64,000 nucleotides of DNA from Alteromonadaceae bacterium (GCA_038141035.1 JAYQHI010000045.1:14618-78617); one strand, 5' to 3'; positions 21,390-39,362 are shown, counted from the first letter of the stretch. Notes: generated from the letters alone by a model not told the origin. Numbers and translations are program-made.

Positions 21390-22438
21390 ATGAGTCAAAA
21401 ACGTTTCCTTTTTTATATTTCTCAAAACTATAGTTTTGCCATTTTACGCCCTTTGCAACAAGCTATTTTAGCGAGAGGGGATATTGCTGCTTGGTTTGTT
21501 GAAGGTAAACAAGTAAATGTAGATTTTTTGAAGAAGAAGAGGAACTGCTACTTTCAGTGAGTGATATTTTTGATTATTCCCCTCATGCTATTTTTTATCC
21601 AGCTAATTTGGCTCCTACGTTTTTACCGGGAATTAATGTTGCTGTTTTTCATGGTTTTGATGCAGGAAAGGTTGATAAAAAAGGTAATAATGATCATTAC
21701 AAATTACGGCATTGTTTTGATTTGTATTGCACGCAAGGACCTGAATCGACAGAAAAATTCACTGAATTTAAATTACAGCATGACTCATTCCATGTCAAAG
21801 AAACGGGCTGGTGTGCAATCGATCCGCTTTATCAACAGCAGAAAGCAATTGATAAAAACTCATTACCTACGGTACTGTTTTGTTCTACTACCTTTTCGAG
21901 AAATTTAACCAGTGCGCCACATTTGTTTGATGAAATTAAGCGCTTAAGTACTCAAGGGAAATACCGTTGGTTGGTGCAATTTCACCCTAAAATGCCTGCT
22001 GAAATAGTTGAACAATACAAAACAATTGAAAGTGAATATTTAACCTTTGTTGAAACGGATAATGTCATCCCGTTATTACAAGAAGCTGATTTGATGGTTT
22101 GTGATACATCGTCAGTGTTATTGATGTTTTTATTATTAAATAAGCCTGTGGTTACTTTTAACAATATTGCGCCAAAAGATTATTTAATTAATATTACAGA
22201 GCCTGATTTACTTGAGCAGTCAATTGAACATGGCTTAACAAAACCGAAACCCTTAATGGATAATATTCAACATTTTATCGAGCAAACACATCCTTATCAT
22301 GATGGCCGTTCTTCTGAGCGGGTTTTACAGGCTGTTGATGAGGTGTTATCTGGTAAGGTTTCGGTTAAAAAGCAAAAGCCGTTAAATATTTTACGTCAAA
22401 TAAAAATGAGAAAACGGCTTGGTTATTGGCAGTTTTAA
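21390..22438 (+). pseudogene. CDP-glycerol glycerophosphotransferase family (TagB/TagF-like) protein, one frameshift
   Basis: The ATG at 21390 (MSQKRFLFYISQNYSFAILRPLQQAIL...) runs to a stop at 21558-21560. ORF 21557..22438 continues in the -1 frame (FHGFDAGKV..., VQFHPKM, DTSSVLLMFLLLNKPVV). The junction is at the T6 run 21524-21529. Confidence 0.7.
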
Positions 22439-22439
22439 A

Positions 22440-23526
22440 TTACGACAATAAAGAGAGAAAATATTTTTCGTAATTTTTAATGGTTTGTTGGTGTGAAAAT
22501 TTATCATCGATGACTTTCTTGGCATTTTTTCTTAACTGTGTTGCTAACTCTCTATTTTCGTAAACCTTACGGATAGTATTAGCAAGTGCTTGGATATCTT
22601 CTGCAGGGTAAACTAAACCATTTTCGCCATCTGTAATTATTTCTAAAGACCCCTCTATATTTGATGTGATCACCGGGGTTCCATTTGATAATGACTCTAA
22701 TATTGTTCGAGGTAGCCCTTCTTTGCGTGTTGAAGGTAACAAGGTAAAGTCAGCGGCTTTTGCTAATTGCGGAACGTCGTTACGAAAACCGGTTCTAATA
22801 ATCAAATTTTTGGCAGGACTGTTTTCAATTAAGCTATCAAACGGTTCTTTTTCCATATTATTACCAACTAATAACAACCTTAAGTCGTTTAAATCGGATA
22901 ACAGTGCCATGGCATCAATAACATTTTTTGTTCCTTTATGCCCTCTAAGTGCGCCAACACACATAACATTAAAGTATTTTTCATCTGAATGAACAGATGT
23001 TAAATCGGTTGCTGGTTCTTGATACCATGAGAAGTCATGGCCTTTATAAATAGTTTGCACAAACGGGTGAATAGATTTTTTCACTTTGCTTTTAACGCTG
23101 TCTTCTACCCCTTTAGCAACACAGATAACACCATCAATTCTTGGATGTAATGTGGTGATATAATTACTTAAATCACTTCTATGAAGCCCGCCAGTTGTGC
23201 CGCGATAGGCGATCATTTTGGCTTTGGTACCTATGCAAGCGAAAGCTGCATTAGGTATGGTTCTAGATTTAGTGGCGTAGACAATATCAATGTTTTTAGT
23301 GTTAATTTGCTGACGTATTTTTTATATAATTTAATGAAAACTTTTTATCCATTGGTAAGTGAATAACTTCCATGCCCGCATCTTGATAATGCTTAACATA
23401 GGCGCTATTGAGGTCAGTCATGATGGTGATGTTATGACCAAGTTTAGCTAAACCGATATAAACTTCGGCTTCTGGTCTAACGCTGTTGTATGAACGACCA
23501 ATGTCTGGAACTACTAATATATTCAT
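22440..23526 (-). pseudogene. GT4-family (GT-B) glycosyltransferase, one frameshift
   Basis: ORF 23302..23526 (MNILVVPDIGRSYNSVRPEAE) plus ORF 22440..23216 (EX7E region RKEGLPRTILESLSNGTPVITSNIEGSLEIITDGENG). The downstream frame is open upstream (KKIRQQINTKNIDIVYATKSR...). The shift is near 23325. Confidence 0.8.
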
Positions 23527-23539
23527 AAGGATTTACTTT

Positions 23540-25041
23540 TTAAAGCTGGTAATTTATGCCAAAAGAGATGTTGGCGTCATATTGCGTATCTTGACTAATA
23601 AAACTTGATTGACTTAACTCAGTACCGATTTTGTAAGTAATATTATTGATTTTTTTAGCAATGTTACCTGATAGCATGATTAAATCTTCAGATATTTTTG
23701 TCACTGTATTGCCTTTGTTGTCATCGTTAGGGAAACTGTCTGAATTATCTTTATTTAATTCAACGAACCGTAACCGTGTATCCCACTTGATGCCGCTTTC
23801 AGTTTGCCCGATCATACCTAAGACGATTGATTCAGCGTCATTATCATATAAATGGCCTATATTACGGTTTTTATAGCGCATGCCGGTTTGGTAAATATGA
23901 TGTTCGAAAAAACAATCACCGATAACCTTTTCTTTACCGCAAATTTCATAAGTGCCATTATATTCGGCAAACCAAGTTAATGGTTGATTAAATAAGCTTG
24001 CTTGTCCATCAAGCCCTAATTGAACAGCTGGTTTAGTGATAAAGTTTAAGCCGTTATCTGCATTACCATCTTCACCAAAATATTGGCCATAAAAACTCAT
24101 CGGTGTGTTTTGGAAATTAAAGGAATAACGAAAATCAAAACCCGCTTGTTGATTACCGGGTTCATTTTCTTTATTAACACCACAATCTAAACCACCAACA
24201 TCGCAATTATCTTTACCTAAAAATAAGTCGATAAAAGTACTTAAGCTTTTTGAACGATTATCTCCCCCCATTGCGCTAGGCGAATAATTGATACTTCTAA
24301 GTTTTCAATCGGGATAAAACTTAGGCGAAAGCCCCAGAGTAAGGTATTAGGTATGTGTCGGTCTGCTTCCATTTTTCCCATAAAGGAGGTGACATTCCAA
24401 GGCACTTGATAATTATTAGTAAAAGGCACAGTGAAAGGAATAGCGACATTACGGGTAATCGCGGCAGATAAGATAGGTCGTGCATTATTGGTTAACCCTA
24501 TATTACTGTCCCAACCAGGTCCCCACCAGCGATCTTGTGTCCCCAGAGATAAATTCCAATTACCTAGTCGTAAAGCAACGTAGCTGTCATTAAATTGAAT
24601 ATTGTCTCCTTCAAGGCTTGAAGAGGTAATTGAAGGCGATAATTTGTAGGCGATATAATCAGACACGCTACTCGCGGATAACGTGATGTTATTTTTGTTA
24701 CGAAAGTCGTCACCAAAACTGGTAAAACGTTTGGCGGCAGTTGAAGTGTTAGCCGCCAGCGTAAGCTTTTTTCGACGTGCTTTATAAAAAGCATCGTTAA
24801 TATAAAAATAACTTTGTTTTTCGCTATTATTTAATCGAGTGAGATCTATTTTTTTTAATGCAGTATGAATATCAACCCACATTAAAGGGTAAGTGTTGAT
24901 CGGGGTATTGATATGGCCAGCATTGGCTAAGTGATTAATACTAGCTTTAAGAGAAAGATCCGCCGTATTAATAAAGGGCTCGGCACTAGCTATGTTTACA
25001 TAAGATAGCACGAAGAAAAGAAAAACTTTTATTTTAAACAT
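23540..25041 (-). pseudogene. wzi: capsule assembly outer-membrane protein Wzi, one frameshift
   Basis: ORF 24241..25041 (signal peptide, DRWWGPGW motif, ...RLAQWG) and ORF 23540..24271 (GDNRSKSLSTFIDLF... beta-barrel) join in the C6 run 24264-24269, which is G6 on the coding strand. Confidence 0.75.
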
Positions 25042-25067
25042 TTTATTTCTTTATCAGCTGGCTAGGT

Positions 25068-25658
25068 TTAAGTCCAAGAGGCAGGTTTGCGTTTTCTACC
25101 GATCAGGCGCGGTAACAGACCGCCTAATAATAACCCAATACCTAGCACTATGGCACCATTAAAAAACCACTGCGTTAGGATTTCTTGATCTTGATGTTTG
25201 AGTTTACTTTTGACATTGGTTAATTCGTTATTCAAATTTGCAATTTCTTTAGTGAGTTCTTCATTTTTTGACGTTAGTAAAGCAATTGTGTCGTTGGCAT
25301 TGGCTATTGTTGTTTGGTTACTTAGCTCACTTTCACTGTATTGTGCTAACTTGGTATTTAATTCGGCAATGACATTACGCAAACTTGGATTTTGGCTGAT
25401 GTACTGGCTTTCAATCCAAGTGGTTTTGCCGTTTGGTGCAATAATTTGGCTGTAGCCATTGGCTTCTTCACCGGTTATTTGAATTTCACTACCCGCTTGA
25501 ATTGTTCCTAAAATACGGTAATTTTTCCCAGCACCTGCCAGCATATAAATAAATAAGTCATCACTAATATAGGCGTTAGTGGTGGTTTCGTCTTGAGCAA
25601 TAGATGAAAAAGAAAGTAGTAAAACAGAAAAGGCAAGGAAATCTTTAAATAAGCGCAT
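25068..25658 (-). CDS. ygiM: SH3-domain protein YgiM-like (signal peptide, SH3b, coiled coil, C-terminal TM)
   Basis: 196 aa: signal peptide, an SH3b-like stretch (YRILGTIQAGSEIQITGEEANGYSQIIAPNGKTTWIESQYI), a coiled coil and a C-terminal TM. It sits next to ygiF as in E. coli. Confidence 0.75.
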   Translation of the reverse strand: MRLFKDFLAFSVLLLSFSSIAQDETTTNAYISDDLFIYMLAGAGKNYRILGTIQAGSEIQITGEEANGYSQIIAPNGKTTWIESQYISQNPSLRNVIAELNTKLAQYSESELSNQTTIANANDTIALLTSKNEELTKEIANLNNELTNVKSKLKHQDQEILTQWFFNGAIVLGIGLLLGGLLPRLIGRKRKPASWT

Positions 25659-25841
25659 TTATTAACCAATATGAAGTTTGAACAATAAAACTAAAATAGT
25701 AGGTGTTTGAGATACCTATCGCAAGCATAACTTTGTAATATTCTTTAATAAATAAAAGAAATTAGTCTAGAAAGTGTTTTGTGGTAAGGTTGTGATAAAT
25801 TTACTCGGCTAAACAGATTATTTTTAAATATTCAGGAAATT

Positions 25842-27351
25842 ATGGAAACCGAAATAGAATTAAAATATTTAGTGGTTAATGAACAGGTTGTAGAGCGCAT
25901 TAACAACTTATTAGATGAAAAAATATCACTATGCGGTTGCTAATAATACGCTAACCAACTGTTACTTTGATACTAAAGAGCTTTCTTTTCGAAAACATGA
26001 TTTTGGTTTACGTGTTAGAAGTAAAAATGAACAACGTGAGCAAACTATCAAAACAGCAGGGCAGACCATTGGTGGCCTGCATAAACGCCCCTGAATATAA
26101 TATTGATATTACCGATAACTTTCCTGATTTGTCCTTGTTTCCTGATGAAATTTGGCCAAAAAATACCAACTTAGCACAATGGCAGGATGATCTTATTGTG
26201 CTGTTTTCTACTGATTTTGTTCGCCATACTTGGACGATAACGTATGAAAAAAGTGTCATTGAATTAGCCTTTGATGTTGGCAGTGTTAGCTCATCAGGTC
26301 GAGAGTTACCAATTTGTGAAATTGAACTTGAGTTGCTCGGGTGAAGAAGCGGCGATTTTTTCGTTAGCGCAGCAGCTATCAAACGTTTTATTAATGCGTC
26401 CAGGTACTAAAAGTAAAGCTGCTCGTGGTTATCAGTTATGGCATAACCAGAGTGATGAGCAAGAGATAGCCGAATTTCCTTTTATTCCAATTTCGGGTAG
26501 TGATACTTGTGAAAGTGCTTTAATTAATGGTTTGACGTTTAGTTTGTCACATTTACAAAAAGTCATTGATCGCTATTTTAATCAGCCGTCGTTATCGTTA
26601 TTGAGTCAAATAAATCATGCATTGTTATTAATGCGCCACGCCTTTTGGTTATTTGATGATTTGATTTCTGATGAGCATTTAGCGATCCGTAAAGAGCTTT
26701 CGCATTTTTTAAAAATGTTAGCTTGGCAAAATAACGCAAAAAACCTGCATGATATTATAACTAAGCAGAGTGCTTTTCGAAAAAAATAGAATATAGCCAA
26801 AAATTAGTTAAACAACTTAAACTTGAAGAACGCCGCTTTCCATCGACAGAGCAAGTGTTAGAAATGTTAATGTCGAGCCGTTTTAATCAATTACAACTTT
26901 CTGTTTTGCAAATGATTTTAGCTGGTGAAAAAGGCTTAAAAGCAACAAGCGAACATAATCAGTCTATTTTTAGTTTTTGTGCCAGTGCTTTAGAAAAAGC
27001 TTAAATGCATTAGCTGATGATATTTCTTTTGAAAGTTCGATCAGTGCCGAGCAGTATTTAACCTATAAACGTATTTTAAACCGCAGCTTGTTAACAGGAA
27101 GTTGGTGCGGCCAATTGTTTGATGACAAAGCACGCGCTGATTATCGTGCTCCTTGGCTTGATATTATGCATGGCATCACTGAGTTAGAAACCTTATGTAT
27201 GCTTAAGCAGCAATTATTACAATTACAAGCGGTTGAAGACCAACCTGAGAAGTTAGTTAACTGGTTGGAATGTAAAATAGAAAACTTATTAACTGCGTTA
27301 GATGCTTCTCGGCAAATGGCGTTAGTGGTTCCTCCTTATTGGCGAAGTTAA
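25842..27351 (+). pseudogene. ygiF: inorganic triphosphatase YgiF (CYTH + CHAD domains), about 5 frameshifts
   Basis: METEIELKYLV start (the CYTH EXEXK motif), then YFDTKELSFRKHDFGLRVRS, PEYNIDIT...ICEIELEL, and a CHAD-like remainder. Conserved sequence hops between frames near 25925, 26090, 26340, 26780-26786 and 26995. Track ORFs 25967.., 26271.. and 26977.. are pieces of it. Confidence 0.8.
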
Positions 27352-28231
27352 TGAACAAACTTTTTTTTGTGTTTTATCGGTTTGTTGGGTTTTTGCCAGT
27401 TCAGCCAAAGAGTATGTTTTACCTGATAATGGCTTAAGAGTGATTGGTGAAAATACCTATTATCAAGTACAAAAGGGCGATTATTTTCAGCAAGTTGCTG
27501 AAGATTTTAATGTTGGATTTTTAGCATTAATGGCAGCAAACCCTAATGTTGATCCTTTTTTACCTGCGCCAAATACCGAACTTGTTATCCCTACAAAGTT
27601 GATTTTGCCCTTTATTAAGCATCATGGCATTGTTATTAATTTAGCGGAATTACGTTTATATTATTTTGAGCCAGAGCAAAATGTTGTTCATGTTTTCCCG
27701 GTGGGCATTGGTCGGGAAGGATTAAAAACACCCAGCACGGTGAGCTTTATTAGTGATAAACGTAAAGATCCTGTTTGGCGACCAACGGCTGAAATGAAAG
27801 CGCGTTATTTGCAGCAACATGGTAAACCTTTAGCTGATGTTGTGCCCCCAGGAGAGAATAATCCTTTTGGTAAATACGCATTAAGACTGGGTACTAGCGA
27901 ATATTTAATTCATGGCACTAATCAACGGTTTGGCATTGGTATGCGGGCAAGTTCAGGCTGTATTCGGATGTTTGATGCGGATATTGAATGGCTATTTAAT
28001 CATGTGCCGGTAAAAACTGCCGTTGCTATTATTGATCAGCCAATAAAAATGTCATATGAAGGTGGCCAGCAAAAGCATCTTGAAATCCATCAGCCGTTAA
28101 GTGATACCAATAGCCAGTTATATCAAAAATCATTGCAGCAGCTTCGTCATTTTGTCGGTGAAGATTTATCTGAATCGGCGTTAACTGAGCTAATCAATCA
28201 AGCATCAGGCTTAGTGGTACAGATAAAATAA
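27351..28231 (+). pseudogene. L,D-transpeptidase (LysM + YkuD; ErfK/YbiS/YcfS family), one frameshift in the signal peptide
   Basis: The ATG at 27351 overlaps the ygiF stop (TAATG). After a shift in the T8 run 27361-27368 it reads MNKLFFCVLSVCWVFASSAKE..., then the LysM segment (YYQVQKGDYFQQVAEDF) and the YkuD catalytic motif (IHGTN...SSGCIRM). Confidence 0.85.
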
Positions 28232-28281
28232 AACAGCAATAAAGCGGTTTTATAACAAGTAAATTTTACAGCCAATGTCGG

Positions 28282-28542
28282 CTATTTTTTATAGCTAGCA
28301 ACCATATTGTCAACTTTGCTATTAGCATCTTCTGCTAACATTTTTGCTTTTTCAGCTGCGTTTTTTGCAGCTTCAACTGACTTGTTGGCAGCGCTTTGCT
28401 GCTTTTTAAGATCAGCAACTTGGCTAGATAAAGTATCAACCTTATTGCTTAATGTTGATACTTGTTGCTCTAATGCTTCATTGCTGGCACAACCCGCCAT
28501 TAAAATGATCGTAGCTGCTATAGTTATTTTTTTAATTAACAT
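28282..28542 (-). CDS. lpp: Braun-type major outer-membrane lipoprotein Lpp
   Basis: 86 aa with lipobox LMAGC, heptad-repeat alpha-helical Ala/Lys/Ser-rich sequence, and a C-terminal ...SYKK (terminal Lys, as in E. coli ...YRK). Confidence 0.8.
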   Translation of the reverse strand: MLIKKITIAATIILMAGCASNEALEQQVSTLSNKVDTLSSQVADLKKQQSAANKSVEAAKNAAEKAKMLAEDANSKVDNMVASYKK

Positions 28543-28641
28543 ATTCTATTCCTGTCCTTAAGTATTCATGCAAATACAGTATGGCAGTAAATTGATAAAG
28601 CTGTCGAGTTTTATATTAACGATATATTAACACAGTTTAAC

Positions 28642-28944
28642 TTAAGCGTTATCGATGACATAACCAATCAATTCTTCCATCAGTTTCTTTTTGATTTCTA
28701 ATTGTTGATCAGGCGAGAGCTGGTATTTTTCGGCAAGTTCAATATAGTCATCAGGTGATAAACTCACGGTTAATCTTGGACGTTTTGGCCGTTTATTTGT
28801 TGTTAATCCTAAAATGGTACGAATTTGGTCTGAGGGGCTAATACCGGCTTCGAGTGCTTCTCGTCGGATCGCCATTTGAATTTTTTCATCCATATCAAAA
28901 AAGCAATTTGTGTTGCTTTTGCTGCCGTAACGGATGATTGCCAT
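28642..28944 (-). CDS. small hypothetical protein with two ribbon-helix-helix-like segments (possible DNA-binding regulator)
   Basis: 100 aa. Segment 1 is CFFDMDEKIQMAIRREALEAGISPSDQIRTILGL and segment 2 is LTVSLSPDDYIELAEKYQLSPDQQLEIKKKLMEEL. Each has the beta-strand/helix/helix pattern of CopG/Arc/MetJ folds. This is the last gene of the pspA-like operon. Confidence 0.45.
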   Translation of the reverse strand: MAIIRYGSKSNTNCFFDMDEKIQMAIRREALEAGISPSDQIRTILGLTTNKRPKRPRLTVSLSPDDYIELAEKYQLSPDQQLEIKKKLMEELIGYVIDNA

Positions 28945-28969
28945 TTCTCAGGGATTTTTCTTGCCACAA

Positions 28970-29605
28970 TTAACTTCCTGGATACATGTCGACAATGTCG
29001 GTTAAAGGTCTAAATAAGGTTAAGAATACATCAGTATCACCGTCAGACCATACTTCTACATCAATACCACGATCTTCTGCGGGATCATATAAAGTATAGA
29101 GCTCAAATTGCTCGCCAGCCTCTTTTCCTTCATAAGCACTTAATGTTTCACTGCGATGGTCTTTTTTATGAAAATAACCGACTTGGGCGAATACATGTTG
29201 TTGATAAAGATCGCTTGTCCAGCCTTGCGTTTTATCATTGTCTGCTTGGCGGGTTAATTGCGCTTGGTTATTTTCTTCAAAAATGTCAGAAAACTGCTCT
29301 AAATCAAATAAGTTTTCAACGTCTGCATGCTCAATTTTTAAAGAGAATTTTAAATAACTTTTATCATCTTCTTCAAGCGCTAGATAAAGTTCCGTTGCGT
29401 TTTCACCGGTTAATACCCACTCGGTTTGTGTTAATCGCTCATATTCATAACTATTAACCGCGGTTACTTGAAATTGTTGTTGACGCAGATTTGCAGGTAA
29501 GGCAAAGCTGTCGGTTAACACAATAATATCACCGGTAGTGAGATCTTTAACGGAATTAAGTTGGCGAATTTCTTTTTTCACCAAATATTTTTTTAGAAAG
29601 CTCAT
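28970..29605 (-). CDS. YjfK-like protein (DUF2491/DUF4178 family)
   Basis: 211 aa. The N-terminal region (GDIIVLTDSFALPANLRQQQFQVTAVNSYEY...TEWVLTGENATELYLALEEDD) matches the DUF4178-type pattern. It sits directly after a PspA-family gene, as yjfK does in the E. coli yjfIJK operon. Confidence 0.6.
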   Translation of the reverse strand: MSFLKKYLVKKEIRQLNSVKDLTTGDIIVLTDSFALPANLRQQQFQVTAVNSYEYERLTQTEWVLTGENATELYLALEEDDKSYLKFSLKIEHADVENLFDLEQFSDIFEENNQAQLTRQADNDKTQGWTSDLYQQHVFAQVGYFHKKDHRSETLSAYEGKEAGEQFELYTLYDPAEDRGIDVEVWSDGDTDVFLTLFRPLTDIVDMYPGS

Positions 29606-29640
29606 CGTAACGTTACTCTTAATGGGTTGTACTTAAACGC

Positions 29641-29676
29641 AATAAGCGGCTACCAATGACTTGGTAACCGCTTATT
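29641..29676 (-). other. intra-operon stem-loop between the pspA-like and yjfK-like genes
   Basis: AATAAGCGGCTACCA / TGGTAACCGCTTATT: a 15-bp stem with one mismatch and a 6-nt loop. No U-tract follows on either strand. Confidence 0.55.
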
Positions 29677-29689
29677 TAATAACAAAACC

Positions 29690-30379
29690 TTATTTTTGTT
29701 TTGCTTTTAAGCGCTCTAACACTGAGTTGGCACTGGCATCCGCTTGACCAATACCTGCTTCTTTTAATTTTGCTTCTAACGAGTTATCTGAGTTTTCAGA
29801 CTCTAATACTTCAGCAGCTTTCATGCGATCATCAAACTTTTGTTGTTTGGCTTTAATACGCTCTAATGAGTCTTTTGCATTTAATAACTTAGAGTTACTT
29901 GATGAAAAGTTATCTGTGATAGCTGATGTTGCTTTTTGCACGCTTTCCGTGGTTTTTACCATAGATAATTGGCGTTTGTATTCTGCCACTTGGCGTTCAC
30001 TCTTTTTCACTAACTCTTTCAAACGATTAGCGTTACCTTCAAAACTTTCTAACGCTTGTTGTTGAGTTGTTAATTCGCTTTCTAAGGCGGCAATTTTTTC
30101 AGCTACTGCTAAGGCTAAGGTTTCATCACCTTTTTCTAAAGCTTGGACAGCGTAGCCTTCGTGTTCAACAATTTCACGTTTAACGCGATCAACTTCACGA
30201 CTTGCTGCCATTTGCTGTGCCATAACGCCAGTTAAGTCACGTTTAGCTTGGGTTAAATGATTTTCGGCATCACGAATTTCTTGTTCAAAAATACGGGTTG
30301 CGTTGGCATCAACAATAGCTTCACCAACTTCAGTTGCGCCGCCACGAATTGCCGTCATAATTTTTTTAAAAATGCTCAT
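29690..30379 (-). CDS. PspA/IM30 family protein (YjfJ-like)
   Basis: 229 aa of all-helical coiled coil with the typical family N-terminus MSIFKKIMTAIRGGATEVGEAIVDANATRIFEQEIRDAENHL. Confidence 0.85.
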   Translation of the reverse strand: MSIFKKIMTAIRGGATEVGEAIVDANATRIFEQEIRDAENHLTQAKRDLTGVMAQQMAASREVDRVKREIVEHEGYAVQALEKGDETLALAVAEKIAALESELTTQQQALESFEGNANRLKELVKKSERQVAEYKRQLSMVKTTESVQKATSAITDNFSSSNSKLLNAKDSLERIKAKQQKFDDRMKAAEVLESENSDNSLEAKLKEAGIGQADASANSVLERLKAKQK

Positions 30380-30395
30380 AAAATAGCTCCTGAAA

Positions 30396-30809
30396 TTAGA
30401 TTAAGTATTCACTCATGTCATCGATAACTTCGATGGCATTGTTGTTTAGTACAGTTAACTCATGCTCAATATCATCAAATGACGAGCTAATGGCTAAGGC
30501 GCCAAAAATTACATATTTATCGCCAATTTTTGAAAACGATGATAATGGCATTGGAATATTCATTTCTAGCATGCTTTCATGCATGGCAGCAAAACATTCG
30601 GGCTTAACTTCATCCTTACCCCAAAGGTAAGTAATACAAAGAATTTGATCATCGGTTACAGATAAAAATATCGGTAATTCTTCACGGCCAATGATCGAGA
30701 TTTGCAATACGTCTACTTCGCCTGAAATTGGCTGGCAATCAAAAACCATTCCTGTGTCTGAATTATCAGCAAGTGTGTTTAAGTGATCCGCTATCTTATG
30801 AATGTTCAT
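30396..30809 (-). CDS. YjfI-like protein (DUF2170)
   Basis: CQPISGEVDVLQISIIGREELPIFLSVTDDQILCITYLW...PLSSFSKIGDKYVIFGAL. The track ORF starts at a TTG (30836). The ATG at 30809 has AGGA 5 nt upstream. It lies directly upstream of the PspA-family gene, as in E. coli yjfI-yjfJ. Confidence 0.6.
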   Translation of the reverse strand: MNIHKIADHLNTLADNSDTGMVFDCQPISGEVDVLQISIIGREELPIFLSVTDDQILCITYLWGKDEVKPECFAAMHESMLEMNIPMPLSSFSKIGDKYVIFGALAISSSFDDIEHELTVLNNNAIEVIDDMSEYLI

Positions 30810-30871
30810 GTTGTTCCTCATGTTGATAAGTAGCAAAAATTAAGGCGGATAATCGCGCGTTAATTTTTATA

Positions 30872-30890
30872 GGTGACATATTATGTCACC
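30872..30890. promoter_or_regulatory. 19-bp perfect palindrome GGTGACATA-T-TATGTCACC (candidate operator, promoter-proximal)
   Basis: 9-bp arms around one central base. It lies 7 nt downstream of the predicted -10 of the yjfI-pspA operon promoter. Its core, GACATAnTATGTC, is shared with two other sites. Confidence 0.55.
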
Positions 30891-30897
30891 AGAGTTA

Positions 30898-30925
30898 AAT
30901 GTAGCATTAAGACATAATATGTCAA
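30898..30925 (-). promoter_or_regulatory. predicted sigma70 promoter of the yjfI-pspA-yjfK-RHH operon with an embedded palindrome (30911..30923)
   Basis: Minus strand reads TTGACA-tattatgtcttaatgc(16 nt)-TACATT. The -35 hexamer is part of the palindrome GACATATTATGTC. Confidence 0.5.
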
Positions 30926-30935
30926 CAACTAAATA

Positions 30936-32656
30936 CTAATTATTTTTGTTAATTTGCAAATAGGCATTATTTAGCCCTTGTTGATCTCGCCATGCTTGTT
31001 GATGCAATTGGTATATTGCATGGCTACCGAGATAGTTTATTGGCACCTGAGCGGCATGCTTATAAAAGTTTTCAGGAAAAATAAAGGCCGCTCTTATTAA
31101 ATCAATATTTAACCAATGGCCTGTTACCGGTAATTTTTCAATATTAGCTAAGCGTGTTGAAGGCTTAGCGCCAATTTTACTGGCAATGGTCCAGCCCCAT
31201 TCGCCAAAGCTAGGGACATTGTCATGGTATTGCTCTACGGCAGTAAAGTCAGCGGCCGCGACAGTCTTAGCAATAGCAATAAAAGCATCTTTGGCATGAT
31301 AAGGGCTAGTTGATTGAATGCCAATTAAGCCATCTCCTGCTAAAAGTTGTTTTAAGCGAGCATAAAAGTTCACTGAATATAACTTATTGAGATCAGGATG
31401 GCTTGGATCGGGTAAATCGACAATAATGGCATCAAACACTTCACCACTGGCTAATAGTTCATCAATGGCTAGAAAAGCATCCGCGGTAATAATATGAGCA
31501 CGTTTATCTAACAGGCTATTTTCGGTCAAAAGAGTTATTTGCTTAGCAATATCGGGAGCTAAGTGGTTTTCAGGATATTTAAATAATTCAATCAACTGCT
31601 CATCAAGATCAATTAAAGTGACTTTGTTTGGCTGCCATTTAAGTACATCCCTTAATGCTAAGCCGTCTCCACCTCCGATAATTAAAATATTATCTTGGCG
31701 TGCCGAGCCGGCAAGTACGGGGGTGACTAAATAATCGTGGTAAATAAACTCATCACTGGAAGAAAATTGTAAGCGGCCATTTAAATAAAAATTGATCACT
31801 GATGAATGGCTTGAACCCATGTTACGTTCGGTAAAGGTTAGCTGTTGATAACGGGTTTTGTCGCTGTAAACGACTTTATCGAGATACAACATATTGCTCA
31901 TTTGATTAAGCCAAGCATTACCTTGATAAAAAATCACGACAATAAATAAAGCTAATAACAAGTGTAAACTGACTAAGGTTTTACGCCATGTTAATTGTGG
32001 CCAAAAACGATATAAAAATACGCCACCAATAAGTAAATTAAAGCTTGCGGTAATAGCGGATGCTTTACTGATATCAATACTGAGTAAAAATATAACCCAA
32101 ATTGCTGCGCCGATACCGGCACCAATATAGTCAGCACCGTACATAGTACCTAAATTATTTTCTAAATGTTTTTTGTGGAGAATTTCACGTACTCTGGCAA
32201 TTAAAGGAATTTCCATACCAATAAAAAGCCTAAAGCAAAGCCAAAAAAGTAAGGGGAATTAATAGCTAAAAAGCTTAGCTGTTTGAAGATGCCACCTTTA
32301 GGTAGTGCATCGGGTGGTAGCGTAAAGGTTTCCGCTAACATTTGTGGCATTAACTGAGTAATGGCGATTAACCCGCCGATCAATAAAATCGCGCTAGTAC
32401 CTAATAAGGCAATGATCAGCTCTAACCAAATAAAACCATTAAAGGCGCAGCGGATATGACGTGCGGCAAATGCGCCCATGCCCATAGCGACAATCATTAG
32501 ACCTATCATGGTGTATATCGTACTTTCCATTACGCCCAGCACTCGGCCAGCGTAATGAGAAAGTAAATACTCATAAATCAAACCACAGCCGGCTAATACG
32601 GCCATGGTTAAGATCAATAAACTATCGTCTAGTAATAATCGACGAGCGGCTTTCAT
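30936..32656 (-). pseudogene. membrane-anchored polyamine aminopropyltransferase (spermidine-synthase-like, multi-TM N-terminal domain), one frameshift
   Basis: ORF 32201..32656 plus ORF 30936..32216 together give about 7 TM helices, then a SpeE-like catalytic domain (ILIIGGGDGLALRDVL, AIIVDLPDPSHP, GEWGW). The junction is near 32216. Confidence 0.8.
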
Positions 32657-32703
32657 TAGTAACTAAAATTATTCAATAAAATGTAATTAACTTTAGTCAT
32701 TTA

Positions 32704-33606
32704 TTACGCCATTAACGCTGTTAAAATTAACGCAATAGCAATGCTGATCGCCATTTCTACAGCAGCAACACCAATGTTGTGTTGTTGATCAACTTCTTCT
32801 ACTAAATTAATACCGAATAAAACAATGCGTTTAGCAATGTTGGTTAATAAAGCCACTAATAAAGTCATCACTAAACCAAATAATAACCAACCTAATAAGT
32901 TATTAACTAAGGTTTCTGGGCTGTAGGTAAAAAAGTGGCTAGCAGCGGTGATCGCTAAAGCTGTGCTGATCACTTGGCCGGCATAACGTAATGCTAATGC
33001 AACTTGACCATTTTCAAAGGCTTCTTGTAAACAATCGTCTTGATTATATTTGGCATATTGACGCTCTTTAATACGAGTAACAATAACCAACATAGTTTGA
33101 GCCACCAAAAATCCACTAATAATAGCGATAAAGGTACTTACGGTTAAACCATGCACCCAAAGTAAAACTGCGCGGATCACTATAGCAGTGGCAATAACAC
33201 CGGCGGCATCAACAATACCCACCGTTAGGTTTTTTGCCTTAATTTGTGCGGTTTTATCTAATTTTTGTAGCGCTACACGATCATGAATAATACGGCCAAT
33301 TTTTATCAGTATTAAACCAAATATGCCATAAGCTGACATGCCAATTGCTTCCATGAGGTAACTCTCGGCATTTTCACCGGTGATCGCCCCTGTTAATACT
33401 ATGCCTAAGGCAGCAATGCTGCCCGCAACACTAATACCGAAAGCAAAGTTATCTTCTTTCGATAGCTCGTCGGTGGTATTTACGTTGGCAGATAACCCTG
33501 AAATAAATCGCATTGCGCCTAATAAAATAATGGCAATGGTTACATCAATGATTAAATAAATGAGTAAGTCTTGGGTCAGTCCGGTCATTTCTATTATGTT
33601 ATTCAT
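32704..33606 (-). CDS. integral membrane protein with four DUF350 (YjfL-like) repeats
   Basis: 300 aa. Four repeats each pair a polar loop and an N/Q residue with a TM helix: TTDELSKEDNFAFGISVAG, DKTAQIKAKNLTVGIVDAAG, LQEAFENGQVALALRYAG, VEEVDQQHNIGVAAVEMA. Confidence 0.65.
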   Translation of the reverse strand: MNNIIEMTGLTQDLLIYLIIDVTIAIILLGAMRFISGLSANVNTTDELSKEDNFAFGISVAGSIAALGIVLTGAITGENAESYLMEAIGMSAYGIFGLILIKIGRIIHDRVALQKLDKTAQIKAKNLTVGIVDAAGVIATAIVIRAVLLWVHGLTVSTFIAIISGFLVAQTMLVIVTRIKERQYAKYNQDDCLQEAFENGQVALALRYAGQVISTALAITAASHFFTYSPETLVNNLLGWLLFGLVMTLLVALLTNIAKRIVLFGINLVEEVDQQHNIGVAAVEMAISIAIALILTALMA

Positions 33607-33627
33607 CTTTTCTTCCTAAAATTCTGC

Positions 33628-34603
33628 TTATTTACCACGAGAAAAACCGCGAGATGTTGTGGTACTACTGTTTCTGAAACTTGAGCTACTTGATTTACTG
33701 TAGCTACTTTTATTGGTCGAAGTGCTTCTAAATTTATTTAAACTGCTTTGGGCTTGTTTACTTTTACTTGAAATACCAGAAGCACCGGCGCGATTTTTAT
33801 CGTAAGCACTGGTAAATTTTTGCCCTCTTTGCGCGAATGATTTACGCGTGCGAGTATCAAGATCTGTTTGTTTTTTTAATTGCGAAGGGGAGCTGTAACG
33901 GGTGCGGCCATAGTCATTATAATAACTGTAATTTCTGTTTTGACCCCAACTACTGTATGAGTGACGGCGAGAGCCAAATAAATCGCCCATCATAGAATAC
34001 ATGCCATACCATGCCCAAAACGACATGCCACTACTATCAGTTTGCCAACTGCCATAACTTGGGTTGCCAATCAGCTGTTCACCAACACCAAAATCTTGTG
34101 CCTTGTTCGCTTGCATACTTTGGCTTTTGGATAAGGCATTTACTCTTGGTAATTGACCATCTGACATATCAGCTAAAACATTTAACGGATCACTTAAGGC
34201 ATCTGAATATAATACCGGATCAGCTGCTTGATATAAGTTTAAGGTCTCTTCGTATAATGCTTGGCTGGAAGTGAACATTTGCGGATTGGTTTTTTATGGT
34301 ATTTAGTCGATCAACTAAAGCTAAAAACATTGGCCCTTGCGGGGTCGCATCTTTTTTAAATTCATTAATTAATGGTGCTAATTCAGGTTTTAGTTGTAAG
34401 ACCTTAGTAGCATATTGTTTAATTAAATTTGCATTACGAACGGTGCCATTTTCTAGCGCTTGGCTTAAGGCATTAATTCGTTGTTCAGTAATGGGAATCT
34501 GTTGAGTGATTTGTTCTTTGACTGGGTCTGAACATGCGCTTAATAACATGGTCAAGTAAAAAACAATATCCGAGAAAATGGCATTCCGTGATCCTATTTC
34601 CAT
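33628..34603 (-). pseudogene. lipoprotein of unknown function with a Ser/Arg/Tyr-rich C-terminal tail, one frameshift
   Basis: ORF 34220..34603 (lipobox LLSAC) and ORF 33628..34278 join in the T6 run 34290-34295. The tail reads ...SWGQNRNYSYYNDYGRTRYSS...STSTNKSSYSKSSSSSFRNSSTTTSRGFSRGK. Confidence 0.6.
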
Positions 34604-34624
34604 AAATTCTAATAGAGATCGATA

Positions 34625-34653
34625 TATGTAACATTTGAGACATAATATGTCTA
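34625..34653 (-). promoter_or_regulatory. predicted sigma70 promoter of the lipoprotein-DUF350-aminopropyltransferase operon with an embedded palindrome (34639..34651)
   Basis: Minus strand reads TAGACA-tattatgtctcaaatgt(17 nt)-TACATA. The layout and 13-mer (GACATATTATGTC) match the promoter at 30898..30925. Confidence 0.5.
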
Positions 34654-34766
34654 ATGGTTTGTTTGTTCTAAGGGAAATTAGTTTGTAACGTTTTGTGCTT
34701 GCTGTATATAAAATAAGGCTCTACAGTAGAGGGCGTTACGCTTTGAATACTAGTTAAGGAAACATA

Positions 34767-37620
34767 GTGGCTGTGCTTATTGAAAATGATCTTTTATTAA
34801 CTATGCAATTAACAAGGTGGCAGCAATTAGTTGCTTGTCATCAAGCAGAACTCGCTACCTTAACCGATGAACAAACCGCTTTATTAAAACAAGCGATCAG
34901 TTTAAGTGATTTTGTTTATCAAAGTATTGAACGGGCTGCCGCTGACATTATTCCATTATTTCAAGCTGAAACGCTTTTCCCTAAAGCTGATATTGATTAT
35001 TTAAGCGCGTTGCGTAACAAGCTTAAAACATGCGAAAGTGAAAGTGAGCTTCACAAAATATTGCGCCTTTTTCGTTGTCAAGAAATGGTGCGGATTGCCG
35101 TTGGTGATATTCTTGGCCAATTACCGTTAAAAAGGTCGTTATCGGCATTATCTGAACTGGCGGAGGCGTTAATTATTGCCGCCCAAGAGTGGTTAACTAA
35201 CTTATGCCAAAAACAATGGGGGATACCGCAAGATAAGCAGGGTAATCGACAAACCTTATTAGTATTTGCTATGGGAAAACTTGGCGGTAAAGAACTTAAC
35301 TTTTCGTCTGACATTGATTTGATTTTTAGTTATCCAGCTGGCGGTGAAACCGTAGGCACAAGACGTGCTTTAGATAACCAACAGTTTTTTATTCGCTTAG
35401 GACAAAAGTTAATTACAGCATTGCATCAAGTCACCGAGCATGGTTTTGTTTATCGGGTTGATATGCGTTTACGGCCGTTTGGAGAAAGTGGCCCGTTAGT
35501 GATGAGTTTCAGCGCACTTGAAAGTTATTACCAAGAGCAGGGCCGAGATTGGGAACGTTATGCCATGTTAAAGGCGCGTTTAATCGGTGATAGCCCTTAT
35601 CATCAAACATTAGAACAACTAATTAAACCTTTTGTTTATCGTCGATATATCGACTTTAGTGTGATTGAAAGTTTACGAAAAATGAAACGCATGATTGCAC
35701 AAGAAGTTCGGCGTAAACATTTAATCAATAATATAAAATTAGGCGCGGGTGGAATTAGAGAAGTTGAATTTATTGTCCAAGTATTCCAGTTAATTCGTGG
35801 TGGCAGAGAGCCTAAATTACAGCAGCGTAATTTATTAACGGTTTTACCCCTGTTATTCGAACACGGAGAAATAGAGCACGAAAGCTATAAAACGTTAGAA
35901 AATGCTTATTGTTTTTTAAGACGTGTTGAAAATATTATTCAAGCCTTGGCGGATCAACAAACCCAAACTTTACCTGATGATGAACTCAATCAAGCACGAC
36001 TAATAACAATTTTAGCTTACCAAAGCTGGTCTGATTTTTTAGTTGATGTTAATCAACATATGCAGGCGGTTCATCAAGCATTTAGTGAAATGATTGGCGA
36101 AGAATCGCCTAATCATCAAGCGCATGACGAGCATTGGCAAACCTTATTGTTAAGTGATTGGAGTGCCGAAGAGTCGATTGAATATATTGAAGAATATGCG
36201 CCATTTTGGTCGGGCACGGAAGTATGGCAATTGCTTAAGCAATTCACTGATGACATTAATAAGCGGGCAATTGGTCTTCGTGGGCGGCAAGTACTTGATA
36301 AATTATTACCTCTATTGTTATGGCATTTACAACAAAACAAAGCGTCAATCACGGTTTTTGAGCGGGTTAGTCATATTTTAAAGTGTATTATTACCCGTAC
36401 GGCTTATTTGGAATTATTATTTGAAAATGAGGGCGCGCTTAAACATTTAATTAAATTATGTAGTGCGAGTAATTGGGTAGCGGAGCAAATTGCTAACCAC
36501 CCCATTTTGTTGGACGAATTGATTGACCCACAATTACTGCATAACCCGCCAGCGTTAAGCCATTACGCTTCTGATTTGCAACAAGTGATGCTGCGAATTC
36601 CTGAAGATGACTTAGAAGCACAAATGAATATTTTGCGACAATTTAAGCAAGCGCAGCAATTACGGATAGCGGCGGCCGATATTTCAGGTGTATTACCGAT
36701 CATGAAAGTAAGTGATCACTTAACGGCTTTAGCGGAAGCTATTTTGGCGGAAGTGATTAATATTGCTTGGCGACAATTAACACTAAAACATGGTGTACCT
36801 AATAGTTTGTTAACATCTAATGATAAAGGTTTGTTAGTGATAGGTTATGGTAAAATGGGGGGACTCGAGCTGGGTTATAGCTCTGATCTTGATTTGGTTT
36901 TTATTCACAATAGTGAACTAGATGATAAAACCACGGGCAATAAACCGCTGACGGCGTCACATTTTTTATATCAAGTTAGCGCAAAAAATGATGCTTATTT
37001 TTAATACCCGCATGGCGAGCGGTATTTTATATGAACTGGATCTACGTTTAAGGCCATCGGGAAATTCAGGCTTATTAATGGTTAATATTGATAACTTTGC
37101 CAAATATCAACAAGTAGAAGCATGGATATGGGAACACCAAGCGTTAGTTAGAGCTCGTGCTATTTATGGCAGTTTGGATTTAGTAAATAAATTTAATCAT
37201 ATTCGTCAAATGATTTTATCTTTACCTCGTAATACCGACGAACTTAAAACTGCTGTTGTTGATATGCGAGCTAAAATGCGCAGTCATTTAGATAAATCTA
37301 GCGAACTTATTTTTGATGTTAAACAGGGGAAAGGTGGTTTGGTGGATATTGAGTTTTTAGCACAGTATTTAGTGTTAAATAATAGTCATCAACTCCCTGA
37401 CATTACTGAATATTCAGATAATGTGCGAATTTTTGAGTTATTGGCAAAATATCAGTTAATTACACCAGAAGAGGCCGAGCAATTTATTGCGACTTATTGT
37501 CAGTTGCGAGATTATGGCCATCGCTTAAGTTTACAAAACCAGCCGAATCAAAGTGAGCCTGAATTATTTGCTGAACAAACTCAATCAATAAGCCAAATCG
37601 TGAATAAATATTTAGCTTAA
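34767..37620 (+). pseudogene. glnE: bifunctional glutamine synthetase adenylyltransferase / adenylyl-removing enzyme GlnE, one frameshift
   Basis: GTG start. It has two nucleotidyltransferase domains (GKLGGKELNFSSDIDLIF and GKMGGLELGYSSDLDLVFIH). ORFs 34767..37004 and 36988..37620 join at the T6 run 36962-36967 (HFYIKLAQKMMLIFNTRMASGILYELDLRLRPSG). Confidence 0.92.
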
Positions 37621-37655
37621 TTTACAATGGATTCGGAAATTTTAATAAATTATTT

Positions 37656-38362
37656 TTACCAAGTAGATTGTTGATTAGATAAGTGAGTACACTCAGCCGT
37701 TAAGTAGCTATTGGGCTCTGCAATCAACACTAGGGTTCGATGTTTATAACAAAAATAAATATCGACACCGTGTTCAAAGTGGCCTTCAATTGCTTTACCT
37801 ACTTGAAATGCAGTTTTGACAATATCTTTATCAATACGAAAGGGATCTTTTACTAAAAAGTCACGATTAAGCCACCACATTACTTCGACACCTTGCTCTT
37901 GGCCGTATTCGGATAGTTTTTGATACAAGGTTTCACCGACTCTAAAAGGCCTTGCTTCGCGGTTACCTCGCCAATTTTTACGTAGTGGGCGAGTGACTTT
38001 TTTCGCGCTTCTAAGATCTCGCTTAAGTTGCCTTTGGGATCTGGTAAATAAACAATGTTTTCACGAATACGTGGGCCTTTTTCATTAAAACTTGGGTTAA
38101 TGCTAGCGTAAAAGCGTGATAAGCCTTCAGCTGCTGCGTTGCCTGAGTTTTTAACTATTTTTTTGGGAGCAGGTGTTGAGGCTAATCCTGTTACATCTTC
38201 AGAACTCGTACTTTCAGATACTACTATTGTTTCTGCAACTTCTTTTTCATCACTTTCAAATAGCTCAATGATATCAACCAGTAACTCTTGGTTGGCAAGT
38301 AGAATATATGCGGCTGCAGCTAAAATAACGCCAAAAATTAAATTGCGTATCCAAAAACCCAT
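37656..38362 (-). pseudogene. membrane-anchored hypothetical protein, one frameshift
   Basis: ORF 37880..38362 has an N-terminal TM helix and an acidic/Ser-rich linker. ORF 37656..37928 is in a frame open upstream to at least about 38030 (...NWRGNREARPFRVGETLYQKLSEYGQEQGVEVMWWLNRDF). The shift lies somewhere in 37965-38005. No confident family assignment. Confidence 0.5.
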
Positions 38363-38427
38363 ATTAAATAAATCCCTTGATAGTTCAGGTTAGTTATCGT
38401 TATTTAGCTAACCATACTTAATAATCT

Positions 38428-39362
38428 TTATTTATACAATGACGGATCGTTTTCATTTTCGCGAGTTTTAAAGCGTCGATGTACCCACATGTATTGCTCT
38501 GGTTTATAAGAAATCGCTTTTTCTAGTTCTTGGTTCACCCGTAGTAGATCTGCTGCGTCATCACCACTTGGAAAGTTTTGCCAAGGTTTGGAAAATGAAA
38601 TGGTATAGCCGCTATCGTCATCATTTCGTGTTGGTGTCATCATTAACACTTGGCAGTTTTTTTGTTTGGCAAAAATTAAGGTGCCGGTTGTGGTTGCGGC
38701 ATCAATCCCATAAAAAGGAATAAACAAACTTTTATTTCGACCATAATCTTGATCTGGTAAATAAATACAAGACTCACCGTCTTTTAAAGCTTTTATCAAA
38801 CCCTTAACATCACGTTTGCCCAGCATATATTTATTGGCACGATTACGTCCTCTAAATTGAAAATACTCCATTAAGGCATTGTTGTTTGGTCGATAAAAAA
38901 CCACCATAGGCTCTGCAGCACCAGCACCTCGACAGTTCATCTCGGTACTAAGATAATGCATGGTTAAAATTAAAACCCCTTGGCCTTGAGCTTTAATTTT
39001 TTCAATGTTTTCTATGCCTTCAATGGTCACTTTTCCTTTAAAACGCCAATCTGGCCACCACCAGCCCATACCAGTTTCTAGCAAGGCAATACCAGTGTTT
39101 TCGATATTTTTTTCAATAAGGCGGTTCGTTCTGCTTCACTTTTTTCAGGGAAACATAATGCTAAGTTACGTTTAGCAACTTTGATTCGACTGTAGCCTAA
39201 TTTATAGAGCAATCGGCCAATCATGCGGCCCAGCCATAATTGCCAGCGATAAGGTAACCAAGATATTGTGTATAGAGTGATAACCCCTAACCAGGTTAGC
39301 CAATACTTAGGTAAAAAATACGATAGTTTGAAGTTGGGCTGTAAAACTTTGTTGCTACTCAC
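38428..39362 (-). pseudogene. lipid A biosynthesis lauroyl/myristoyl acyltransferase (LpxL/LpxM, HtrB/MsbB family), one frameshift
   Basis: ORF 39078..39362 (FLPKYWLTWLGV...NLALCFPEKSEAER) and ORF 38428..39084 (LILTMHYLSTEMN, IYLPDQDYG, PEQYMWVHRRFK) join at the T7 run 39107-39113. Confidence 0.85.

Follow-up and report, generated by a model that had tools for sequence, protein, structure and literature searches.

Palindrome-overlapped promoters and a candidate ribbon–helix–helix repressor in a Colwelliaceae PspA–aminopropyltransferase module

What controls a gene cluster that couples a PspA/IM30 protein to a membrane-bound aminopropyltransferase, and at which face of the membrane would its enzyme act? 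These questions are raised by a seven-gene module in a 64-kb stretch of DNA from an Alteromonadaceae bacterium (GCA_038141035.1, JAYQHI010000045.1:14618-78617). The whole stretch is referred to below as the window. The module spans positions 28642–34603, and all its genes lie on the − strand in one direction, as an original prediction made from the sequence had described. Numbered in transcription order, they encode a lipoprotein (g1), a DUF350 membrane protein (g2), the aminopropyltransferase (g3), a YjfI-like (g4) and a YjfJ-like (g5) protein, a distant DUF4178 relative (g6), and a small protein resembling tandem ribbon–helix–helix (RHH) regulators (g7).

Profile searches were run against Pfam, NCBIfam, and PDB, and remote similarities were assessed using hhalign, phmmer, BLASTP, and Foldseek. 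For comparison, we collected the 80 best genomic relatives, covering approximately 21 kb per locus (approximately 1.6 Mb in total); 78 of these loci were long enough to judge. All 80 belong to the Colwelliaceae (Thalassotalea, Colwellia, Cognaticolwellia, and Pseudocolwellia), the nearest being a Thalassotalea metagenome-assembled genome with 82% identity.

Two promoters overlapped by one palindrome

Promoter signatures divide the module into two predicted σ70-dependent transcription units. The first, read from P_g1, would comprise the lipoprotein, DUF350, and enzyme genes, and the second, read from P_g4, the genes for YjfI, YjfJ, the DUF4178 relative, and the RHH-like protein. P_g4 begins in the g3–g4 spacer, 10 nt past the g3 stop codon, and has the features of a strong σ70 promoter (TTGACA-16-TACATT with an upstream TG). 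Its conservation bears out the two-operon layout that had been proposed earlier.

Both promoters are overlapped by one module-specific palindrome. This perfect 13-bp sequence, GACATAWTATGTC, occurs in exactly three copies in the 64 kb, all of them in the two promoter regions. At P_g4, one copy (O1) lies over the −35 element and the other (O2) over the early transcribed region, inside the 5′ untranslated region. The single copy at P_g1 covers the −35 element and the spacer, 36–48 nt upstream of ATG 34603, which had originally been taken as the g1 start. These three sites are found again across the 80 related loci, almost always with zero mismatches, and practically none were detected elsewhere in these loci even when one mismatch was allowed. 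The P_g1 site and its promoter layout are kept in 74 of the 80. Alignment yielded the cores CTTGACATAwTATGTC...TGnTAAATT for P_g4 and TAGACATAwTATGTC...TGnTAtTAA for P_g1. The conserved promoter form is thus TTGACA/TAGACA, a spacer of 16–17 nt, and TGnTA..T. A terminator was found neither in the g3–g4 spacer nor downstream of g7, so that transcription from P_g1 may read through into the second unit.

The presence of a PspA_IM30 domain raises the possibility that the module is a variant of the canonical σ54/PspF phage-shock system, and a putative σ54 site has been reported for the related P. aeruginosa bac operon (PMC10948618). The probability of this explanation is negligible. A scan for TGGCAC-N5-TTGC with up to two mismatches detected no σ54 site in either intergenic region, so that the −24/−12 element that even a distant pspF would need is missing, and conserved σ70 promoters stand in its place. 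Queries with E. coli PspF, PspA, PspB, PspC, and PspD gave no phmmer match among all open reading frames (ORFs) of the window; PspA, in particular, did not match g5. We relied on phmmer for such absence tests, because tblastn with E. coli proteins missed the g5–YjfJ match that was seen by both BLASTP and phmmer. The score of g5 against the canonical PspA model TIGR02977 (20.1 bits) is far below the equivalog cut-off of 242.95. What the module shares with pspF-pspABCDE is the IM30/ESCRT-III-like effector with an N-terminal amphipathic helix. For the window, the canonical system is effectively refuted, and the earlier remark that its parts are absent holds there.

A scan of metagenomes for the palindrome pair gave 120 loci. 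The pair stands directly upstream of yjfI-pspA (g4–g5) in 110 of them, with a centre-to-centre spacing of mostly 34–36 bp. It is also kept in two divergent modules, L082 and L086, whose g7 proteins are 50% and 37% identical, respectively, to that of the window. In a further locus, L098, this promoter–pair arrangement stands in front of a lone g7 homologue (43% identical, E 2e-31) with a rhomboid gene behind it. A gene for a rhomboid-family protease comes immediately after the g7 homologue in two contexts that are unrelated to each other (L098:3767-4932 and L082:6033-7016).

A few palindrome pairs are located elsewhere. Those at L138 and L106 lie upstream of unrelated genes, encoding a periplasmic alpha-carbonic anhydrase (L138:6508-7023) and an S10 peptidase (L106:4346-6033). 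Two more were observed at L164:2336-2381, beside an ECF sigma factor gene, and at L108:2323-2369, where the downstream gene is cut by the contig end. A TTGACA −35 element accompanies the pair in three of these four cases, and some organisms may have a larger regulon. A near-palindrome with one mismatch upstream of the enzyme gene in L083, a locus devoid of g7, was set aside as a probable chance occurrence.

The g7 protein and the integrity of the module

Which protein would recognize the palindrome? The candidate is g7, the one gene common to all palindrome-pair contexts compared (Colwelliaceae, L082, L086, and L098). Its reading frame starts 3 nt beyond the g6 stop codon. The AlphaFold2 model (pLDDT 68) shows a β-α-α unit twice, with the two units joined by an invariant KRPKRPR linker. 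Two such units per chain are also found in tandem RHH regulators, namely AvtR (4hv0) and the engineered single-chain Arc (1u9p), and these were the best Foldseek matches of the model. The similarity is not significant, however, with E values of 0.4–1 (0.43 at best), TM-scores of 0.35–0.39, and no sequence similarity. One UniRef name labels a g7 homologue as RHH/CopG. The topology thus agrees with the tandem RHH-like character that had been suggested for this protein, and a supporting match at the level of Pfam or PDB sequences did not emerge.

The pair precedes the lone g7 homologue in L098 as well as yjfI-pspA, which suggests that g7 acts on its own promoter. Judged from these sequence patterns, g7 is probably an operator-binding autorepressor. 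We propose that it would bind the palindromes and repress the whole module, itself included, until an envelope signal relieves the repression.

Several observations weigh against this proposal. The protein has no sequence match in Pfam or PDB, the PDB profile search having been extended to E 10, and the Foldseek values leave the RHH assignment without statistical support. The link between g7 and the palindrome is one of co-occurrence. No palindrome was found upstream of g1 in L082 and L086, so that the Colwelliaceae may be alone in controlling the two units together. The pairs in front of the carbonic anhydrase and peptidase genes belong here as well.

Alternatively, the palindromes might be bound by another factor, or might not be operators, with g7 serving, for example, as an adaptor or an antitoxin-like protein. 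The 7-bp half-site spacing, unusual for classical dimeric regulators, would be accommodated by such an explanation, as would the missing RHH match by sequence or fold and the occurrence of some pairs away from any g7 gene on the stretch at hand. We nevertheless consider it improbable. The site is module-specific, being found nowhere else in the 64 kb and practically nowhere else in the approximately 1.6 Mb of related loci, and its copies lie across the conserved −35 and +1 regions. It accompanies g7 down to 37% identity and stands with g7 alone in L098. Moreover, g7 is the sole module protein with a plausible DNA-binding topology. The assignment of g7 as the candidate repressor is retained.

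As sequenced, three of the seven genes (g1, g3, and g7) are interrupted, owing to four indels in homopolymers. In g1, shifts at the T-run 34563–34558 and the A-run 34295–34290 result in two pieces and a shifted signal peptide; the true start is ATG 34584. A shift at the T-run 32227–32223 splits g3 into ORFs of 151 and 426 aa. In g7, a shift at the T-run 28902–28897 causes the loss of the N-terminus, the true start being GTG 28967, and the public protein record holds a truncated form of 100 aa. DNA alignment with the closest relative revealed single-base length differences in A/T runs. Relatives have single ORFs for the broken genes, and a metagenomic g7 orthologue with 96% identity is intact.

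The three interrupted genes and the truncated g7 record could indicate a decaying cluster of pseudogenes, with real frameshifts and nothing functional left at this locus. We regard this as very unlikely. At least 15 frame switches relative to the orthologues were counted in 18 kb, between 21.5 and 39.2 kb (21500–39200), nearly all on A, T, or C homopolymers of at least six bases. Outside the module, they affect ygiF (four to five switches), glnE, and other genes, housekeeping genes among them. Downstream of the shifts, there are no stop codons and conservation is unchanged, and the operators and promoters are perfect. The spread of homopolymer-bound switches over many genes argues for assembly error rather than module-specific decay. 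The four indels are thus most probably homopolymer sequencing errors in the source assembly. The features of the module are collected in Table 1.

Table 1. Positions of the module genes and control elements in the window, with reading frames corrected where indicated
Feature	Position	Strand	Remarks
P_g1	34625..34653	−	TAGACA −35-like element 34653-34648; GACATATTATGTC 34651-34639; extended −10 TGtTACATA (−10 = 34630-34625)
g1, lipoprotein, ~318 aa corrected	33628..34584	−	lipobox LLSAC; homologues in L082/L086/L083
g2, inner-membrane protein, 300 aa, 4 x DUF350	32704..33606	−	PF03994 E 2.9e-35
g3, 7TM + SpeE-fold aminopropyltransferase, 573 aa corrected	30936..32656	−	Spermine_synth, PRK03612
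P_g4 with two putative operators	30875..30925	−	TTGACA 30925-30920; O1 GACATATTATGTC 30923-30911; TACATT 30903-30898; O2 GACATAATATGTC 30887-30875
g4, YjfI-like DUF2170	30396..30809	−	ATG at 30809; Pfam E 1.9e-37
g5, PspA/IM30 family, YjfJ subtype	29690..30379	−	Pfam E 1.3e-38
g6, soluble protein, 211 aa, distant DUF4178 relative	28970..29605	−	sub-threshold Pfam match
g7, tandem RHH-like, ~107 aa, candidate repressor	28642..28967	−	GTG at 28967

Chemistry and orientation of the aminopropyltransferase

The enzyme g3 had been described as a membrane-bound protein resembling spermidine synthase, and the searches agree with this description. The protein matched Spermine_synth in Pfam (E 3.3e-29), and its corrected sequence passed PRK03612 of NCBIfam over the full profile length (579.8 bits vs a cut-off of 472). 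Against TIGR00417, the model of canonical SpeE, the corrected protein scored 111 bits, below the cut-off of 249.55, and so falls short of the SpeE equivalog.

For a closer inspection of the residues, we aligned 64 homologues having 27–49% identity to a reference, P0121. This protein is the enzyme of the full L082 operon and is 51% identical to g3; it was also used for structure modelling. When aligned to solved SpeE structures, g3 displays the motifs DEFIYH, GGGDG, IDLD, and VDLPDP. Among the 64 homologues, DE..YH, GGGDG, D.D, and DLPDP are invariant or at least 90% conserved. At the sequence level, g3 thus keeps every residue that defines a decarboxylated S-adenosylmethionine (dcSAM)-dependent aminopropyltransferase, as the original prediction requires. 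The corrected soluble domain contains no cysteine. A gene for S-adenosylmethionine decarboxylase (AdoMetDC) was not identified among the module genes.

The AlphaFold model of P0121 (pLDDT 93.4, pTM 0.89) consists of seven long transmembrane (TM) helices and, after them, a complete SpeE fold. Foldseek retrieved SpeE structures with target-normalised TM-scores of 0.73–0.81; among the matches listed, the 50 best were all confined to the catalytic domain. In the membrane domain, acidic and polar residues are conserved across the alignment (E37, GxEIPL, D184-Y185, and N215). The distribution of positive charges is strongly biased: the N-terminus and loops 2, 4, and 6 carry a mean of 10.4 Lys+Arg residues, as compared with 0.95 for loops 1, 3, and 5, and the bias holds in all 64 sequences. 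The odd number of helices, combined with the positive-inside pattern, predicts that the catalytic domain faces the periplasm.

A precedent for this architecture is the fungal N-terminal histidine methyltransferase NHMT (AN4663), in which seven TM helices also precede a spermidine-synthase-like fold and which acts on secreted proteins in the endoplasmic reticulum (PMC10349129). That compartment is equivalent to the periplasm, so a periplasmic g3 domain would fit the precedent. The fungal 7TM sequence has been reported to be fungus-specific (PMC10349129). The two enzymes differ at the diagnostic position of GxG(D/E)G, which is Ile in NHMT, a protein that uses SAM for methylation. In g3, the Asp is conserved (GGGDG), as in the dcSAM-binding signature. 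Because this Asp separates dcSAM users from SAM methyltransferases, a methyltransferase function by analogy with NHMT was rejected.

What, then, would be aminopropylated? With a periplasmic catalytic domain, the most likely substrate would be an amine on the envelope side. A bolder possibility, which we consider less likely than not, is that the 7TM domain, perhaps together with the DUF350 protein, passes dcSAM across the inner membrane and that the periplasmic SpeE-fold domain aminopropylates such an amine, not free putrescine. Candidate substrates are the lysines of the g1 tail, which is rich in Lys, Arg, and Ser and ends in Gly-Lys, or an amine of peptidoglycan or lipid. If true, this would amount to aminopropylation outside the bacterial cytoplasm, controlled by an RHH repressor and supported by a PspA dedicated to it.

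Two considerations tell against the periplasmic placement. The topology is derived from the predicted structure of a 51%-identical homologue combined with a statistical rule. In addition, dcSAM is a cytoplasmic metabolite, and a periplasmic active site needs a hypothesised delivery route.

A membrane-anchored polyamine synthase facing the cytoplasm would use its donor where dcSAM resides. Such an enzyme would make spermidine or a related polyamine at the inner leaflet. In a PspA-type damage response, this product would then be exported by the 7TM and DUF350 proteins to protect the envelope. The intact dcSAM-type catalytic residues and the full SpeE fold are in line with it, and the closest structures belong to broad-specificity polyamine aminopropyltransferases (e.g., 1uir/3anx and 7xif). 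DUF350 recurs beside polyamine enzymes, including YjfC, the peptide–spermidine ligase of E. coli, and surface spermidine made through PA4773-4774 protects the outer membrane of P. aeruginosa. However, the seven helices and the charge bias place the domain opposite the cytoplasmic loops, and the low TIGR00417 score does not speak for an ordinary spermidine synthase. This cytoplasm-facing arrangement is a possible, though doubtful, alternative.

Related fusions have been studied. In a 2019 study, Li et al. are said to have found that fusions of a membrane part with spermidine synthase yield no spermidine and do not complement speE, which would count against the cytoplasm-facing synthase and fit a periplasmic domain. 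The fusions were reportedly linked to AdoMetDC and DUF350, and aminopropylation of a substrate other than putrescine is said to have been proposed. The membrane part was reportedly called MFS-like and the focus was on the AdoMetDC partner.

Partner proteins, conservation, and related operons

The lipoprotein g1 has the lipobox LLSAC with Ser at +2, a helical N-terminal part, a conserved core of aromatic residues and Gly, and a tail rich in Ser, Thr, Lys, Arg, and Tyr, much as had been noted. Approximately one third of the tail is Ser/Thr and one quarter is Lys/Arg. The C-terminal RGK is invariant even in the distant L082, L086, and L083 loci, and the homologues have three conserved motifs in common. 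In these homologues, the lipid-modified Cys is followed by Ser or Gly, from which the E. coli sorting rule suggests that g1 resides in the outer membrane. No Pfam family was matched. The C-terminal Gly-Lys recalls the C-terminal Lys that links Lpp to peptidoglycan.

The DUF350 match of g2 falls into two stretches of the 133-position profile, and four DN.A.G-type 2-TM repeats are visible, in accordance with the four repeats proposed for this 300-aa protein. They correspond to two YjfL-like units and approximately eight TM helices.

The assignments of g4 and g5 to DUF2170 (PF09938) and PF04012 also proved sound. The two genes are adjacent, with 16 nt between them. The start of g4, MNIHKIADHL, is conserved in relatives; the protein, which has a CesT/Tir-type chaperone fold, matched BacA (PDB 8q8o, E 6e-6) and E. 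coli YjfI (E 4e-9). Over its full length, g5 is 30% identical to E. coli YjfJ (E 6e-28). A long ORF antisense to g5 (29823-30065, + strand) is 87% identical to its counterpart in L005; it is most likely a by-product of g5 conservation and coiled-coil codon bias, not a gene.

The earlier description of g6 as YjfK-like, with DUF2491 or DUF4178, needs correction. The DUF4178 match is weak (E 0.0057, 17.2 bits vs a cut-off of 25) and spans most of the profile, and 11 of 13 relatives also gave it, with a best E of 8e-5. Identity with YjfK was ruled out by an hhalign probability of 0.6%, YjfK itself matching only DUF2491.

Gene content is strictly conserved in the family. In 78 of 78 informative loci, all seven genes are present, colinear, and next to glnE. 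Median identities reach 86.5% for PspA (g5), 83% for YjfI (g4), 77% for DUF350 (g2), and 74% for g7, and are lower for the flanking glnE (60%) and ygiF (37%). The position between ygiF and glnE, which had been read as an insertion, is fixed in the Colwelliaceae, and no GC or skew anomaly was seen over the module in the window. A recent horizontal insertion was rejected on these grounds; any insertion must have been ancient. The full module is found at other genomic positions in two more distant taxa, L082 and L086, in the latter near ligA. There, an Ion_trans_2/TrkA_N potassium-channel gene (L086:13343-14383) follows the module; such a channel was also listed for a related ATP-grasp operon type by Ravi et al. 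(PMC11237479).

Two variants reveal how the module can be divided. L083 (6467-10722) contains only the lipoprotein, DUF350, and enzyme genes. L085 (314-4151) has the DUF350, enzyme, DUF4178, and g7 genes, and lacks both YjfI-PspA and the internal spacer. It follows that the enzyme triad can be separated from the YjfI-PspA dyad, and, to judge by these gene orders, the internal promoter travels with the dyad.

On the ygiF side of the module, the ygiF-glnE interval also holds genes for an LdtE-like L,D-transpeptidase (+ strand) and for an alanine-zipper lipoprotein of the Lpp/OprI type (− strand), the latter ending in ...YKK (27440-28542). In L001 and L002, which are the two closest relatives, the pair is missing from this place.

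Comparison with the literature showed that the module is the Colwelliaceae copy of a published, functionally uncharacterised operon type. Ravi et al. (2024, mSystems; PMC11237479) defined a second group of CesT/Tir-PspA operons, exemplified by Shewanella AAN56744.1-AAN56747.1. Besides a DUF2170 gene directly followed by one for a yjfJ-type PspA, these operons encode a spermidine-synthase-like domain fused to a 7TM domain, a YjfL/DUF350 protein with 8 TM helices, a new lipoprotein with a Ctha_1186 domain, DUF4178, and sometimes a terminal RHH protein; the authors proposed that the PspA system monitors polyamines or else the transfer of aminopropyl groups to further substrates (PMC11237479). The gene content matches; in our module, the DUF4178 match is sub-threshold, the RHH match is not significant, and the lipoprotein is recognized by its lipobox and conserved core motifs. 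The association from comparative genomics mentioned in the original prediction is thus real but was understated, as that paper describes this very six-to-seven-gene operon. Our analysis adds the two-promoter split, the shared operator, the link between g7 and the operator, the variants without the dyad, and the predicted topology.

The E. coli yjfIJKLMC operon likewise combines adjacent YjfI and YjfJ orthologues with DUF350, a lipoprotein, and an enzyme of polyamine chemistry. There, the enzyme is YjfC, an ATP-grasp ligase, in contrast with the aminopropyltransferase of the module. YjfK belongs to DUF2491 and not to the DUF4178 relatives, YjfL comprises just one 4-TM unit, YjfM (DUF1190) shows no relationship to g1, and an RHH gene is absent. 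In agreement, YjfK, YjfM, and YjfC gave no phmmer match in the window. E. coli yjfIJKL is uncharacterised, although strains evolved under heat show up-regulation of the operon (PMC12492005).

Among YjfI/YjfJ-like pairs, only BacA/BacB of P. aeruginosa has been studied, and its mutants have biofilm, rhamnolipid, and virulence phenotypes (PMC10948618). In bacA-F (PA3732-PA3727), the DUF2170 protein BacA is followed by the PspA-like BacB, in the same order as g4-g5. According to the authors, that operon has no spermidine-synthase-like gene, and its putative σ54 site has no counterpart here (PMC10948618).

Taken together, the explanation that we favour, with some reservation, is that this Colwelliaceae copy of the published operon consists of two palindrome-controlled units with g7 as the repressor and a periplasm-facing enzyme. 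The literature provided no experimental work on the group-2 operon type that could lend weight to it. According to this model, the g3 catalytic domain, placed at the periplasmic face by its seven helices and the positive-inside pattern, would most likely aminopropylate an envelope-side amine rather than serve bulk cytoplasmic spermidine synthesis. Handling of the cationic donor or product would fall to the 7TM and DUF350 proteins, with the lipoprotein g1 as a partner or a substrate of the enzyme. The same membrane would be stabilized at its cytoplasmic face by YjfI, as a chaperone, and by the ESCRT-III-like YjfJ.

The observations of the original prediction are therefore partly confirmed: they are real, with corrections needed. 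Its interpretation, in which a response to membrane damage produces a polyamine at the membrane surface, is plausible and partly supported; it was reasonable and largely published already. With the module itself already described, what is new is the shared control site, the probable repressor, and the prediction of a periplasm-facing enzyme.

Both PspA/ESCRT-III proteins and polyamines play a central part in membrane integrity, and the gene sets that couple them (this module, E. coli yjfIJKLMC, and P. aeruginosa bac) are without known function. The 13-bp operator and its candidate repressor offer handles for experiments, in the form of reporters, derepressed mutants, and signal screens. The enzyme-DUF350-lipoprotein and YjfI-PspA sets can be approached as separable sub-modules. 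An extracytoplasmic aminopropyltransferase domain, if true, would change which substrates are to be sought.

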